A DNA stretch of 64,000 nt, from IMG/VR virus record IMGVR_UViG_3300020190_000007, positions 96,001 to 160,000 of that record. One strand, given 5' to 3'. Below the pieces are notes generated by a model, which worked only from the letters and a program-made list of their open reading frames with translations, did no database searches and was not told where the DNA came from. Source of the stretch: a virus. Shown here in pieces: positions 21,522 through 43,892 of the stretch (position 1 is the stretch's first letter; every line of letters starts with the position of its first letter). The translations under genes and the position numbers were made by a program.

Positions 21522-21722
21522 ATGATAATCGTAAACGTCAACAAAGAAAAAAACCTTGAATCAGCATTAAAAAAATACAAATACAAGGTTCAAAAAACTA
21601 AACAAATCGAAAAACTTAGAAAAAAACAAGAATATGTTAAACCATCGGTTGAAAAAAGAGATAAAAAATTAAAGGCGATTTATAAGCAGCAATTGTTTAC
21701 CGATAAAGAAAAATCAAATTAA
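21522..21722 (+). CDS. rpsU: Ribosomal protein bS21
   Basis: LESALKKYK...LRKKQEYVKPSVEKR...KAIYKQ, 66 aa, Bacteroidota type. Confidence 0.92.
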   Translation: MIIVNVNKEKNLESALKKYKYKVQKTKQIEKLRKKQEYVKPSVEKRDKKLKAIYKQQLFTDKEKSN

Positions 21723-29929: not shown

Positions 29930-30718
29930 CTATTGCGGTAAGGACAATTTTTTATTTCGTATTGAACTTTTGATATTAAAAAGTTTTTCGATAAATCCAT
30001 TTCTTCTTAATAATTTGAAGGTTAAATTTTCATAGGAATATTCACCTCCTTTTTCTAATCCTGATTGTCTGAATTTTTTTAGCTTGTCTTTTAGGGTTTT
30101 TATTTCTTTTGAAACATCTCGACCTTTATTGTTTAAATCTTCTAAACGTTCTACTTCTTTTGCGTATTCCTCGGATTTTTCTAAAATTTTCTTCTCATCG
30201 ATTTCAAAAGCTGATTCAAATTTTTTAGGTTCAATAACCCAATCATTATTCAAAACCGAGTAAACACCTGTTGCAAAATACTTGTCATCCACGTCTTGAA
30301 CATACATCTCCACTTCATATCCTTTAATTTTAATATCGGTGGTCTCGTTCCACAATCTTCGTTTTACATCAAAAAATTCTTGTACGATTTGGTGATAAAC
30401 AACTAAATCTTTAGACTCTGATTCATCAAATTCGTCATAATCAATTAATATGTGGATATCAACGTCTGAATATTCAGACCAATTATAGTTTGCTAATGAA
30501 CCAATAAAAATAATATCATAGATGAAAAAATTAACCCCAACAAAGTCGATAAATTCTTCTGTTATTTCTAACATTTTTTTTCGAACTTCTGAATTTAAAA
30601 CAGATTTACCATTATTAATATCAAAGATATCGTTAGGCAATGAATCCTTTGGAACAAAAGATTTTACAATCTCTTTGTTCTTTTCCATGTCTTCAATTAT
30701 TTCGTCAATTACACTCAT
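29930..30718 (-). CDS. Pol-beta superfamily nucleotidyltransferase
   Basis: GSLANYNWSEYSDVDIH (GS...DxD). Confidence 0.8.
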   Translation of the reverse strand: MSVIDEIIEDMEKNKEIVKSFVPKDSLPNDIFDINNGKSVLNSEVRKKMLEITEEFIDFVGVNFFIYDIIFIGSLANYNWSEYSDVDIHILIDYDEFDESESKDLVVYHQIVQEFFDVKRRLWNETTDIKIKGYEVEMYVQDVDDKYFATGVYSVLNNDWVIEPKKFESAFEIDEKKILEKSEEYAKEVERLEDLNNKGRDVSKEIKTLKDKLKKFRQSGLEKGGEYSYENLTFKLLRRNGFIEKLFNIKSSIRNKKLSLPQ

Positions 30719-31132: not shown

Positions 31133-33151
31133 ATGTCAGTAGATTTTTTCGAAGAAGGAAACACAACCAACCCAAAGAAAACAAGAAAGGGTTCAACCAC
31201 CCCTATCCTTGATAACTTTTCAAGGGATTTAAACAAAATGGTAGAAGAGGGTAAAATTGACCCAATAATTGGGAGAGATGGTGAGGTTAAAAGAATTGCA
31301 CAGATATTATCTAGAAAAAAGAAAAACAACGTAGTGATAATTGGTGACGCGGGTGTGGGTAAATCGGCTTTAGTTGAGAAACTCGCTCAGATGATTGTAA
31401 AAGGAGATTGTCCATCAAATCTTTTAGACAAACGAGTTGTATCATTAGATTTAACATCTTTGGTGGCTGGTACAAAATACAGAGGTCAGTTTGAAGAACG
31501 TATTAAAGCAGTTCTAAACGAAATACAGAATGAACCTAATGTAATTGTGTTTATTGATGAAATACACACAATGGTTGGTGCTGGCAACGCTAGCGGGTCA
31601 ATGGACGCCGCTAATATTATGAAACCCGCATTAGCTCGAGGAGAAATTCAATGTATTGGGGCGACAACATTTGATGAATTTAAAAAACACATCGAGAAAG
31701 ATGGTGCATTAGTTAGAAGATTTCAAAAAATAATTTTGAAAGAACCAAGTAAGGAAGAAACAGTTCAAATTTTAAAAAATTTAAAAGATTCATATCAAAA
31801 TTTTCACAAAGTATTTTATGAACCGGAGGTTTTTGAAACTATCGTGAATTTGTCATCAAGATTTATCACAGACCGTCAGTTTCCCGATAAAGCAATTGAC
31901 GTGATGGATGAATTGGGTTCAGAAAAAAAAATAAATACCAAAATTCCTGAGATTATTGAAAAACTAAAAAAGGAATCTGATGATTTAAAAAATAGGAAGA
32001 TAGAAGTTGTAAAAAGTCAAAACTATGAACAAGCGGCTAAATTAAGAGATGAAGAAAGAAAATTACTGAGTAAATTAAATGATGAAAAAAAGAAGTGGTT
32101 AGACAAACAAAAAGACAATAAAACACCCGTAACGGTTGCAGATGTATATGAAATGATTTCACAAATTACAGGTGTACCTCTCTCTAAGATTGATGATACA
32201 GAGACCGCAAATCTTTTGAACTTAGAAGAAAAATTAAAATCTAAAGTAATTGGTCAAGACGAGGCTATTTCAATAATTTCCAAATCAATTAGAAGAAATA
32301 GGGTTGGTATTAAAGATACAAATAAACCAATAGGTTCTTTTATATTTTTAGGTTCAACTGGTGTTGGTAAAACATATCTCGCAAAATCGATTGCTGAACT
32401 ACTTTTCGGAGACTCCGAAAAAGTAATTCGTGTTGATATGAGTGAATACATGGAAAAACACAACGTGGCAAAATTAATTGGTTCACCTCCAGGTTATGTT
32501 GGTTATGATGAAGGAGGCCAACTTACTGAGAAGATTAAAAATAATCCATTTTCTGTGGTATTGTTCGATGAGGTTGAAAAAGCACACAAAGACGTTTTCA
32601 ATATCTTACTTCAAATTTTGGATGAAGGACATTTAACCGATTCGTTTGGAAGAAAAGTAAACTTTACAAACACTATAGTAATCATGACATCCAATATTGG
32701 TGCAAAAAAAGTATCTGAATTTGGTAAGGGTGTTGGTTTTAGTTCATCATCTTCAGAATCACAAAACTTTGAGGTTAAAAAATCAATCGTTCAAAAATCA
32801 TTAAAACAACACTTTAACCCTGAGTTTTTGAATCGAGTAGACGACATAATCAGTTTTAATTCGTTAGATAAAGATGTAATTAAAAAGATTATTGAAATTG
32901 AATTAAATAAGTTGTCTGTTAGATTAAAAGAAAAAAATTATAAAGTTTCTTTTGATAAGACAATTGTGGAGAGAATATCGGAACTTAATATTCAAGAAGA
33001 TTTTGGTGCAAGACCAGTTAAAAGAATCATCCAAAATATGTGTGAAGATTATTTAAGTGATTCAATCTTAAAAGGCGAAATTAAGGAGAATGATTCCATT
33101 AATTTAAAATTTAAAGACGGTGAAATAAAAATTTTTAAAAAAAGGGTGTAA
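31133..33151 (+). CDS. ClpC-like AAA+ unfoldase lacking the N-terminal domain
   Basis: Two Walker A motifs (GDAGVGKS, GSTGVGKT), UVR-like QNYEQAAKLRD, GSPPGYVGY, VGF loop. Confidence 0.92.
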   Translation: MSVDFFEEGNTTNPKKTRKGSTTPILDNFSRDLNKMVEEGKIDPIIGRDGEVKRIAQILSRKKKNNVVIIGDAGVGKSALVEKLAQMIVKGDCPSNLLDKRVVSLDLTSLVAGTKYRGQFEERIKAVLNEIQNEPNVIVFIDEIHTMVGAGNASGSMDAANIMKPALARGEIQCIGATTFDEFKKHIEKDGALVRRFQKIILKEPSKEETVQILKNLKDSYQNFHKVFYEPEVFETIVNLSSRFITDRQFPDKAIDVMDELGSEKKINTKIPEIIEKLKKESDDLKNRKIEVVKSQNYEQAAKLRDEERKLLSKLNDEKKKWLDKQKDNKTPVTVADVYEMISQITGVPLSKIDDTETANLLNLEEKLKSKVIGQDEAISIISKSIRRNRVGIKDTNKPIGSFIFLGSTGVGKTYLAKSIAELLFGDSEKVIRVDMSEYMEKHNVAKLIGSPPGYVGYDEGGQLTEKIKNNPFSVVLFDEVEKAHKDVFNILLQILDEGHLTDSFGRKVNFTNTIVIMTSNIGAKKVSEFGKGVGFSSSSSESQNFEVKKSIVQKSLKQHFNPEFLNRVDDIISFNSLDKDVIKKIIEIELNKLSVRLKEKNYKVSFDKTIVERISELNIQEDFGARPVKRIIQNMCEDYLSDSILKGEIKENDSINLKFKDGEIKIFKKRV

Positions 33152-33189
33152 ATATTCATACTTTTTAAAAAAACATATATATTTATATT

Positions 33190-33290
33190 CACACAGGATA
33201 TCTTTGCCGATTTCCTTTCGTTTTATAGTCTGTGGTGTTGAAACCACAAAATGACCACAAACCCCCGACTCTCTGTTGGGGGTTTTTATT
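33190..33290 (+). ncRNA. Candidate small RNA A
   Basis: ORF-free unit between TATTTATA (33180-33187) and a terminator; complementary to candidate RNA B. Confidence 0.55.
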
Positions 33291-33295
33291 TTTTT
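33259..33295 (+). terminator. Intrinsic terminator
   Basis: AAACCCCCGAC-TCTCT-GTTGGGGGTTT followed by a T-run. Confidence 0.85.
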
Positions 33296-33342: not shown

Positions 33343-33756
33343 ATGGAATATACAAAAGATTTGATATTAGTTAGGGGTTTACCCGGCTCGGGTAAATCCA
33401 CTTTAGGTGAGGTCATTCTTTATACCCCAAATAATCCAATGAAACCATTGTCGGCGGATGATTTCTTTACAGACAAGGAAGGTAACTACAATTTTGACCC
33501 AATAAAATTAAGGGAAGCTCATAACGACTGCCAACAAAGGTGTGCAAATTTGATGATGAATAGCGTCGTAAGAGTTGTTGTGTCAAATACGTTTACCCAA
33601 GAATGGGAAATGGAACCATATTTTGAAATGGCGAAAAGATACGGATATCGAATTCACACTATTGTTGTTGAAAACAGACACGGTGGTGAAAATGTCCACG
33701 GAGTACCCTCTGACAAATTAGAGATTATGAAAAATCGTTTTGAAGTAAAACTGTGA
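33343..33756 (+). CDS. P-loop kinase (polynucleotide kinase/AAA_33-like)
   Basis: RGLPGSGKST, SADDFF, VSNTF, HGVP. Confidence 0.85.
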   Translation: MEYTKDLILVRGLPGSGKSTLGEVILYTPNNPMKPLSADDFFTDKEGNYNFDPIKLREAHNDCQQRCANLMMNSVVRVVVSNTFTQEWEMEPYFEMAKRYGYRIHTIVVENRHGGENVHGVPSDKLEIMKNRFEVKL

Positions 33757-41553: not shown

Positions 41554-42129
41554 GGGGGTGTATGGAATTGATTGGCGTTGATATGGTAAATGGGCACGTA
41601 GTCGGATGTCATCTACGACTTTAATCCACGGTGGTAAATTTTAAACGGCAACGTTTATAACCAAATGGAAGTAGCAGGTCTTCTTGCGACTTCTAAAGTT
41701 GCAGCCTAATTGGTTGTAACTAACGGGTCGACGGACAGATAACCTTGGAACAGAAGTCCTTGTAGGGTGTGGTTTCTATCCTAAAAGAAACAAAGTGGAA
41801 GATTAGTTCTCAGTAAACCGAACCACTTTAAAATAAGGGAATTGTGAATTTCGGAGTATTAGAAAATACTGTCCTAAACGTGTAGTCCATTTATTGTATT
41901 GCGAGCAAGACGCGGGTTTTTAATCGAGCCCCTTCATATCGTGAGATATGTCGAAAATCGGATGAACTCAGGGGAAGTCTTTTAGATAATCCTGAGCCAA
42001 GCCTGATAGGAACAGGAAGGTGCAGAGACTAGTGGGTGATAGACGCTTCTATCGTAATACCACATTAGCGTCCGACATCTCGTTGAGATGATGATATAGT
42101 CCAATAATTGTCGAAACCCGCCACCTCCA
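41554..42129 (+). ncRNA. ssrA: tmRNA, intron-containing
   Basis: GGGGGTG/CACCTCC-A acceptor with G3-U70; tag ORF 41647-41709 GNVYNQMEVAGLLATSKVAA*; T-arm GCGGG-TTCGAAA-CCCGC after splicing. Confidence 0.93.
41918..42110 (+). mobile_element. Group I intron (193 nt, IC3-like) in the tmRNA T-loop
   Basis: AATCCTGAGCCAA, GTGCAGAGACT and GATATAGTCC core elements; 5' exon ends in U, intron ends in G; internal guide TCGA-GCCC pairs with both exons. Confidence 0.9.
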
Positions 42130-42133
42130 CATT

Positions 42134-42168
42134 AAAGGGAACCTCAAAAGGGTTCCCTTTTATTTTTA
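42134..42168. terminator. Terminator between tmRNA and the convergent HNH gene
   Basis: AAAGGGAACC-TCAAAAG-GGTTCCCTTT plus T-run. Confidence 0.8.
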
Positions 42169-42665
42169 ATTAAAATACTAATTAATTCATGAATATACGC
42201 ATCATCCATTTCATTTTTCATCCAATTAATTGCCCTTGAAACCCATCTAACATTTCCTTTAACATAACCTAATTTATTATCTATCCTATCTAAAGACGCA
42301 GAATATATTGGATTCTTTTTTATTTTGGTATATGATGACAACTCTAATTTTATACCACTGAATGGACAAATTCCATTTTGTAAAACCCATTGATTAGACA
42401 AATCTTCAATAGTTAAATCAATAATTTGATTTCTTTTTTTAATATTTCTAAAATGATATTTGAATTTTGAATATTCCCCACCTCTATTATTTGAGTGTCT
42501 TTGTATATCGTATCGATTTTTAACGTTTAATAAATTTTTAGTATTGTTAATACCAACACAATTTCTTGAACAAAAATTAGGTCTATTTAATTTTTTATTA
42601 CGATTTAATTCAGAATTTGATTTTTCAAATTCAATCCCACAGCTTGAACAAATACATTTTCCCAT
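42144..42665 (-). CDS. Free-standing HNH-type endonuclease with N-terminal zinc finger
   Basis: CSSC, FCSRNC, CPFSG, SLDRIDNKLGYVKGNVRWV...N.MK. Confidence 0.8.
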   Translation of the reverse strand: MGKCICSSCGIEFEKSNSELNRNKKLNRPNFCSRNCVGINNTKNLLNVKNRYDIQRHSNNRGGEYSKFKYHFRNIKKRNQIIDLTIEDLSNQWVLQNGICPFSGIKLELSSYTKIKKNPIYSASLDRIDNKLGYVKGNVRWVSRAINWMKNEMDDAYIHELISILIKNKREPF

Positions 42666-42730
42666 TTTATTACTTTATTATAAATATGGAGATAATGGGA
42701 AAAGTATGGAGGTGTTACTAATTAAATAAT

Positions 42731-42900
42731 AAACCCACCAATTGGTGGGTTTTTTGTTTTAAGGACACTTTGTCCTCGATATTGTCTTTGAGAGGTATAT
42801 AACGAACAAAGAGGTCAATTCAGACCCCTTTGCCGAGATGTGGAATACCTCCTTTCGTTTTTAGTCTAATTATCATCTCATGGCGACCAAACCATTTGAT
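42731..42900 (-). ncRNA. Candidate small RNA B displaying an extended SD sequence
   Basis: TATTTATA on the minus strand at 42914-42907, terminator hairpin 42731-42752, stem GAGAUG/CAUCUC around a loop containing GAAAGGAGGUAUUCCA, then a 12-bp hairpin. Confidence 0.6.
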
Positions 42901-42929
42901 TCTAATTATAAATATCTTGTAATCTTAAT

Positions 42930-43892
42930 TTAGACGTATTTTTTTGCTAAAGTTTTTAATAAACCTATACCTAAAATTCCAGCTAAGGGGTTCACAGATT
43001 CCCCTCCTTGATTTGTGTTTGAATCACCTTCAATTTGACTTAAATCATCGGGAGTCGTGTTTTGTGCAATGTATTGACTAACTGTTGGGTCATTAGCTAA
43101 AGCATTTTTAAATCTATCATCAAGCATCGCTCTATCGAGTTGGTTCATACTTAAATTGGGTAAGCCAAACATTTTTGCAACTTGACTTGATATGACAATT
43201 GACCTAAACATGTCTTTTCTTGATTGTCTTCCTGCTCTTGTTATATTCCACCATTTACTCAACCAATTGCTAGGTTCCATACCTTTTTTCGCAATATACT
43301 GAGCTAATTTTTCTTCTCTAAAGAATGCTTTCATACCTGTTGCCACAGGTCCTCTACCTGACATCATTTTAAGATAACCAGCCGAAGGTTGTGTTGCAAT
43401 CTCTTTACCAATTCTTTGAGTCATTTGTACAGGTCTTAATTTAGATGCTGTGGTTTTTAGAGAACTAAGACCATCAGTCATTTTTTGACCCCAACCCTTG
43501 TTTATATTTGATACTGAATTTATTGTTTGTTTTACACCAGCATCGTCAAAGTGTTTTGACATCTTTAAGAATTGTTCTTTCGCACTTGGATTTTGCATCA
43601 AGTATTTAGCTAAATCATCACTACTCCTAAGAGCTGTTTTACCAGCAATACCTGCGCTCTTTAATACTCGAATAAATGGTTTAACTATAAAGTCACCCAC
43701 TGTAGGTATAAGCGCGACTAACATCAATGCTGCGTATAGATATTCTTTTTTATAGATATATCTAATAATCAATATAATGTCAGCGATTTCACCAATTACA
43801 GGTACAAATCCCGCTACCATTAGAATATTTTCTAATGTATCTTCTTTTAATACTTTTTTATTTTCTATTATTTGTTTTTTAGTGAATTCCAT
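42930..43892 (-). CDS. Putative virion protein with pre-toxin TG-like hydrophobic motif
   Basis: AGFVPVIGEIAD...AALMLVALIPTVGD. Confidence 0.6.
   Translation of the reverse strand: MEFTKKQIIENKKVLKEDTLENILMVAGFVPVIGEIADIILIIRYIYKKEYLYAALMLVALIPTVGDFIVKPFIRVLKSAGIAGKTALRSSDDLAKYLMQNPSAKEQFLKMSKHFDDAGVKQTINSVSNINKGWGQKMTDGLSSLKTTASKLRPVQMTQRIGKEIATQPSAGYLKMMSGRGPVATGMKAFFREEKLAQYIAKKGMEPSNWLSKWWNITRAGRQSRKDMFRSIVISSQVAKMFGLPNLSMNQLDRAMLDDRFKNALANDPTVSQYIAQNTTPDDLSQIEGDSNTNQGGESVNPLAGILGIGLLKTLAKKYV

Follow-up and report, generated by a model that had tools for sequence, protein, structure and literature searches.

The locus and its genomic setting

The DNA analyzed here, hereafter the window, is a stretch of 64,000 nucleotides, taken from a viral metagenome record 170,860 bp in length (its bases 96001-160000), with a G+C content of 32.7% and an estimated completeness of ~55%. 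Only ~7% of this 170-kb phage genome is non-coding. A 264-nt gap between a 320-aa ORF and the gene for an HNH-type endonuclease contains the motif TATTTATA, a structured stretch, a bidirectional terminator, and a second copy of TATTTATA that serves the next gene. The unit in this gap, which we call RNA B, stands alone, extends from promoter to terminator at 42914-42725 on the minus strand, and has no conserved ORF. Its core measures ~110 nt and the form in this window ~175 nt. The features in and around it, with the bS21 gene of the phage, are as follows:

42930-43892, minus strand: 320-aa ORF that flanks RNA B
42907-42914, minus strand: TATTTATA, promoter-like motif of RNA B, retained in every homologue as ATATTTAT, with constant spacing to P1 downstream
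42876-42899, minus strand: hairpin P1 (UCAAAUGG / CCAUGAGA) with invariant loop UUUGGUCG, covarying across 22 homologues
42858-42874, minus strand: GAUAAU box and A-rich linker (UAGACUAAAAA); GAUAA is conserved, and the 3' extension of RNA A is the predicted pairing partner of the linker
42841-42857, minus strand: extended Shine-Dalgarno (SD)-like stretch CGAAAGGAGGUAUUCCA, complement of the 16S 3' tail
42835-42839, minus strand: AUCUC, invariant, 7-12 nt (usually 8) after GGAGG
42803-42835, minus strand: hairpin P2 (CGGCAAAGGGGUC / GACCUCUUUGUUCG), 100% of cells paired, five pairs changed on both sides
42790-42800, minus strand: anti-SD-like AUAUACCUCUC, clade-specific, which in the minimum-energy fold may pair, on weak support, with GGAGGUAU
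42722-42776, minus strand: 3' extension with hairpin AGGAC/GUCCU (42776-42762), kept in L027, L069, and L076
42752-42731, minus strand: bidirectional intrinsic terminator with U tract, the hairpin terminator of RNA B
42144-42665, minus strand: HNH-type endonuclease, 173 aa, phrog_3322, the other flank of RNA B
21522-21722, plus strand: phage bS21 gene, 66 aa, PF01165 (43.7 bits), with TATTTATA upstream and no SD

The endonuclease gene sits between RNA B and a phage tmRNA gene, and it looks like a mobile, free-standing homing endonuclease because it is missing at that position in several relatives; its upstream region has repeated ATCTCCA / CACCTCCA sequences similar to the 16S anti-SD. The tmRNA gene (41554-42130, plus strand) scores 35 bits, below the Rfam gathering score, and a group I intron (41908-42120, 68.8 bits) interrupts it close to the 3' end. 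ARAGORN missed this tmRNA and found intact ones in the relatives L041, L042, and L077, where RNA B is directly convergent with the intact gene.

A promoter-like motif without an ORF behind it

An earlier note on this stretch had described a minus-strand unit with a motif and a terminator of its own, and both are in place (TATTTATA at 42914-42907 and the hairpin terminator at 42752-42731). The motif occurs 46 times across the 170-kb genome, and ~29 of these copies lie between genes, in sense orientation and with an ATG 3-41 nt downstream, the distribution of a genuine promoter-like motif. All but two copies have an ORF behind them; the exceptions are the one at 33180 (plus strand), which precedes a second small unit that we call RNA A, and the one at 42907 (minus strand), which precedes RNA B. 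Many of the motifs genome-wide lie only 3-8 nt upstream of the ATG, and a large share of the phage messages should therefore be leaderless or nearly so.

As the earlier note had gathered from the start regions that it inspected, the phage does not appear to use SD sequences: GGAG occurs within the 20 nt upstream of none of 159 long phage ORFs, which fits a host of the Bacteroidota type. We infer a Bacteroidota/Flavobacteriaceae-type host. The phage encodes bS21, as had also been recognized, and the closest cellular relatives of the protein are from Flavobacteriales (50% identity). Genomes of host-type Flavobacteriaceae (G038, G040, G061, G065, G068) contain three to five PF01165 paralogues each.

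The predicted 181-nt transcript of RNA B folds far better than shuffled versions of itself (z = -6.3). With its putative promoter and terminator, its lack of an ORF, and its conserved structure, RNA B has the attributes expected of a trans-acting sRNA. A search of the locus against Rfam 15, at gathering and at permissive thresholds, returned only chance matches driven by the terminator (42649-42811), all of them far below the gathering score.

RNA B is conserved as a structured RNA in phages that encode bS21

Pattern scans of viral contigs served to collect homologues, 22 distinct ones of RNA B and 12 of RNA A, after which 29 whole viral records were searched with covariance models (R1 and R2). 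RNA B was matched in 22 of these 29 related records, with one copy per genome, RNA A in 26, and bS21 (PF01165) in 19, including every record of at least 94 kb. The RNA B family thus co-occurs with phage bS21, and the order is conserved: bS21 on the plus strand, RNA A ~11.5 kb further on the same strand, and RNA B another 8-27 kb on and on the minus strand. The records that bear RNA B and RNA A are the bS21 myoviruses of PMC9723584, a paper in which neither small or non-coding RNAs nor intergenic elements are mentioned. The element was found neither in the literature searched nor in any Rfam family.

Other routes to homologues were less productive. BLAST of the RNA B locus and its neighbors against deposited phage genomes returned no relatives, and a search through the neighboring 320-aa protein led to a single locus, cut at a contig end. 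The 16-mer described below, when searched alone in viral contigs, mostly matched chance SD sites of unrelated phages, and only five of the first 80 loci in a metagenome scan were true members. Two weak second matches of the B model (G027:8001 and G004:119654) were rejected because they are terminator-like hairpins only.

The consensus runs promoter, P1, GAUAAU, A-rich linker, CGAAAGGAGG, a variable stretch, AUCUC, P2, and UUAUA. The loop of P1 reads UUUGGUC(R) throughout, and GGUUUGGUC in the P1 region is also invariant. The stretch after CGAAAGGAGG may be UAUUCC, UAUCC, GGUUC, UUGUUCC, or AUGUUCC. The check that the earlier note had named, conservation and covariation in other bS21 phages, supports the hairpins P1 and P2, which covary: taken together, 95.7% of their cells are paired, and the covariation score was reached by none of 500 shuffles and by no slid register. 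Because the helices hold many G-U pairs, the RNA strand is read as the minus strand of the window.

The stem by which the earlier note had closed a 33-nt loop around the SD (GAGAUG/CAUCUC) did not survive this comparison. The two hexamers exist, but they are paired in only 58% of cells, equal to shuffles, GAGAU is the 3' strand of the covarying hairpin P1, and the minimum-energy fold instead pairs GGAGGUAU with the downstream AUACCUCU. The SD, which that note took to be exposed in the loop, is unpaired in the consensus structure and is predicted to be masked in this window by AUACCUCU, through a clade-specific and weakly supported helix. In single-sequence folds its unpaired probability is only ~0.35-0.5, owing to a possible weak 5-bp hairpin between GAGGU and AUCUC and, in the subclade of the window, to the pairing of AUACCUCU with GGAGGUAU; in the predicted folds of other clades the SD core is partly paired with AUCUC. 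The sequence AUAUACCUCUC is present only in that subclade (the window, L027, L068, L069, L076, and L085).

Conservation of RNA B is at the nucleotide level, following helices and G-U pairs and not codons, and this bears on the possibility, raised as an alternative in the earlier note, that the unit encodes an 18-aa peptide (MIIRLKTKGGIPHLGKGV, 42876-42820). The ORF exists in the window and L085 has a similar one. However, an ATG-started ORF is missing altogether from six homologues, the ORFs of the others differ in frame and length, and the ORF in the window is preceded by neither an SD nor an A-rich leader. We therefore rejected it as absent or different in frame or length in most homologues, and regard a coding function of this kind as hardly credible.

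RNA B complements the 16S tail and resembles the host rpsU leader

The central feature of RNA B is GAAAGGAGGUAUUCCA (42856-42841, minus strand), complementary at 15 of 16 positions to the 3' tail of 16S rRNA. The match to that tail given in the earlier note holds against the 16S genes of 14 Flavobacteriaceae genomes, which end in ...GGCTGGAACACCTCCTTTCTAGAG (also given as GGCUGGAACACCUCCUUUCU); equivalently, the plus strand at 42841-42856 reads TGGAATACCTCCTTTC and is identical to the tail at 15 of 16 positions. None of 100 shuffles of the window matched the tail with one mismatch or fewer. Over both strands of the 170-kb genome RNA B is the best complement of the tail (-23.3 kcal/mol, vs. -19.1 for the next), with GAAAGGAGGU forming 10 consecutive pairs, one mismatch, and four more pairs. 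The second-best complement, AAAAGGAGGUGAAUAUUCCU (30034-30053, minus strand), lies inside a 262-aa ORF (29930-30718), ~180 nt before the next start.

Among the 22 distinct homologues, CGAAAGGAGG is nearly invariant, with two exceptions of the wobble type, a C to U change before the SD and an A to G change in its core. The latter, GGAGG to GGGGG in G009 and G025, is the only change in the SD core and retains a G-U pair with the anti-SD. Predicted pairing with the tail ranges from -17 to -25 kcal/mol among the B variants and from -19.6 to -21 kcal/mol among host rpsU leaders.

In Flavobacteriales the 3' tail of 16S rRNA is normally buried under bS21, bS18, and bS6. In F. johnsoniae, rpsU, the gene for bS21, is the only gene that bears an SD; it is read by ribosomes that lack bS21, and its 13-bp SD-ASD helix sterically excludes bS21 (PMC9976891, PMC13000453, PMC13000457). 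The host gene reads AUGAAAGGAGGUGCCAACAUAUG, with leaders generally of the form (A/U)UGAAAGGAGGUGCCAACAUAUG, and RNA B of the L064 type reads AAUGAAAGGAGGUAUCCAACAUCUC, that is, the SD and spacer as in rpsU followed by AUC/CUC instead of AUG. The shared spacer CCAACAU is found in one B clade only and could be due to chance or shared composition.

Start codons are what RNA B lacks. The earlier note had reported no AUG at SD spacing, and GUG and UUG are missing there as well. The SD of RNA B is not placed ~9-10 nt before the start of bS21 or any other ORF; it lies 21 kb from the phage bS21 gene, itself without an SD. The place of the rpsU AUG is taken by the invariant AUCUC. One might suppose, then, that RNA B is a translated leader or sensor, on which ribosomes whose anti-SD is free initiate at the near-cognate AUC and translate a mini-ORF of six to eight codons into P2, the opening of which would modulate termination or the downstream gene. 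AUCUC is invariant at about the distance of a start codon from the SD, ~17 of 22 variants have an in-frame stop in the loop of P2, and P2 followed by a U-rich tail is terminator-like. However, with a stem of constant length the stop necessarily falls in frame, the window and L050 have no in-frame stop, and in G009 a UAG comes directly after AUC. Further, the downstream neighbor varies (a Zn-ribbon gene, an HNH gene, or a tmRNA gene that is convergent and offers nothing to regulate) and downstream genes carry their own TATTTAT motif. We consider this reading improbable. Longer ORFs started at AUC were rejected, with lengths from 0 to >26 codons.

RNA A is a co-evolving antisense partner

The second ORF-less copy of TATTTATA introduces RNA A, which the earlier note had treated as a separate matter. 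RNA A appears to be a co-evolving antisense partner covering part of the SD of RNA B. Its features, and those of a gene that it might also target, are:

33180-33295 (predicted RNA 33195-33290), plus strand: RNA A, antisense partner of RNA B
33180-33187, plus strand: promoter motif
33202-33210, plus strand: segment S1, CUUUGCCGA, complementary to UCGGCAAAG in RNA B (part of the 5' strand of P2)
33214-33231, plus strand: segment S2, CCUUUCGUUUU with extension, complementary to AAAACGAAAGG and the linker in RNA B
33232-33247, plus strand: hairpin
33252-33256, plus strand: UGACC
to ~33295, plus strand: terminator
G000:163574-163930 (= L268:275-631), plus strand, outside the window: gene T, 118 aa, function unassigned, possible target of RNA A

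RNA A is flanked by genes for a ClpB/ClpC-like double AAA+ ATPase (31133-33151, plus strand; phrog_4871, annotated "ATP-dependent protease") and a polynucleotide-kinase-like P-loop protein (33343-33756, plus strand). It has been speculated that bS21 phages might deploy a protease against host bS21 (PMC9976891).

RNA A is predicted to pair with both flanks of the SD of RNA B, and partly with the SD itself, the second pairing site being the 5' strand of P2, complementary to CUUUGCCGA. The duplex predicted for the window has an energy of -37.6 kcal/mol and leaves the 3' part of the SD in a loop. Predicted same-genome duplexes span -20 to -38 kcal/mol and 19-31 bp, and the 3' part of the SD with the spacer, (A)GGUAUUCC...AUC, is always in an internal loop. 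Same-genome pairs beat cross-genome pairs (permutation p = 0.0005, a value inflated by related genomes). The linker of RNA B is otherwise unconserved and differs between clades, yet it remains complementary to RNA A of the same genome, shifting in step with it (AGACU/AGUCU, GGCU/AGUC, CUGG/CCAG); a C-G to U-A change is fully compensated between the two RNAs in G002, and compensated changes also occur in G019. The exceptions are uncompensated mismatches in G017 and G009. These patterns indicate that RNA A co-evolves with RNA B and that their complementarity is maintained by co-variation. Pairing with RNA A also requires the GAAAGG of RNA B, so that 16S is not the sole reason for the conservation of this sequence.

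The two loci have sequence blocks in common, ordered and inverted relative to each other, and one could read both as elements that act as DNA, for instance as binding sites for a protein or as inverted repeats left by a duplication. This is very unlikely, since the promoter motif and a strand-specific terminator are kept at both loci, and the covarying helices contain many G-U pairs, for which the opposite strand would have A-C mismatches.

A more serious alternative, unlikely in our estimate and second only to the start-less rpsU mimic set out below, is a circuit of RNAs without ribosome contact, in which RNA A represses initiation of gene T and RNA B is a sponge imitating the purine-rich leader of T, so that its SD likeness is a by-product. 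The same-genome duplexes and the linker that tracks RNA A agree with it. Further, RNA A fits the leader and early codons of T through two helices around the AUG (-22.5 kcal/mol in the record of the window, second of 169 initiation regions), the fit in the G000/G012/G004/G003 clade ranges from -19 to -27 kcal/mol, and in G004 and G012 the CCUCUCG of RNA A matches CGGGAGG of T better than CGAAAGG of RNA B. However, this fit is strong only in the clade of the window and at background level in most others, whereas RNA A and RNA B are universal. Sponging also does not account for a GGAGG that is looped out of the duplex yet invariant, for indel variants (UAUUCC, UUGUUCC, AUGUUCC) that keep extra complementarity to the 16S tail, or, alone, for the likeness to host rpsU. 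The leader of gene T is short (GAAACGAAAGG, GGGAGG in close relatives) and mildly SD-like, and few such leaders occur in these phages. RNA A was also considered as a repressor of host rpsU mRNA and rejected, its pairing being no better than with shuffled leaders.

A proposed start-less mimic of rpsU

Our leading explanation, held tentatively, is that RNA B is a start-less mimic of rpsU that would bind the freed 16S tail as a decoy or as an aid to bS21 exchange and would be controlled by RNA A. We prefer it because the features that pairing with RNA A leaves unexplained all point to the 16S tail: the invariant GGAGG, the fact that several indel variants are also complementary to GGAACA, the resemblance to rpsU, and the co-occurrence of the family with bS21. 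That RNA B is transcribed, binds ribosomes, and affects bS21 we infer from the comparisons above. The earlier proposal of an RNA that has no ORF and presents a 16S-tail complement in a bS21 phage, as a decoy or sensor, thus gains nucleotide-level conservation, bS21 co-occurrence, and the rpsU likeness, and loses its stem-loop.

In the mechanism that we envisage, RNA B would pair with the freed 16S tail of 30S subunits and, lacking a start codon, could not be translated, hence the decoy and/or exchange roles. It could compete with host rpsU mRNA and block re-synthesis of host bS21, and/or hold the tail out of its pocket such that host bS21 leaves and phage bS21 enters. RNA A would switch RNA B off, or be soaked up by it. 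A stronger version, in which RNA B is an active exchange factor that lets phage bS21 take the place of host bS21 and RNA A then releases RNA B from the ribosome, seems rather doubtful to us; if true, it would be an RNA-only device that re-equips host ribosomes. That bS21 phages encode products aiding bS21 exchange has been put forward as a speculation (PMC9976891).

bS21 is common in aquatic phages. RNA B, as a copy of the only host signal that ribosomes without bS21 read, offers a concrete candidate molecule for the takeover of host ribosomes by the phage protein. If our reading is true, RNA B would become the first known RNA decoy aimed at the ribosomal anti-Shine-Dalgarno tail, and a case of a phage subverting the autoregulatory loop of a ribosomal protein.

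Comparison with known systems

The closest known counterpart is the extended SD region of rpsU in the bS21 autoregulation of Flavobacteriales (PMC7797042, PMC9976891, PMC13000453, PMC13000457). RNA B has nearly the same sequence, (U/C)GAAAGGAGGU, a similarly A/C-rich spacer, and an SD where no other message bears one. Unlike the rpsU region, it has no start codon or ORF, is a predicted stand-alone transcript unit with its SD between two conserved hairpins, comes from a phage in which the bS21 gene itself lacks an SD, and has a dedicated antisense partner.

A second comparison is with pairs of sRNA and anti-sRNA (sponge), such as the prophage RNA AgvB acting on GcvB. As in these pairs, RNA A and RNA B are two predicted independent units at distant loci with long, co-evolving complementarity, and one of them may titrate the other. 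In contrast to such pairs, RNA B carries an invariant ribosome-docking signal that is looped out of the duplex.

The third comparison, one of mechanism only, is with 6S RNA, which sequesters RNA polymerase by mimicking a promoter; RNA B has no sequence or structural relation to it. Both would be stable non-coding RNAs that imitate the nucleic-acid ligand of a core machine and occupy that machine unproductively. The proposed target of RNA B differs, being the tail of 16S rRNA in the 30S subunit, which it would reach by plain base pairing.
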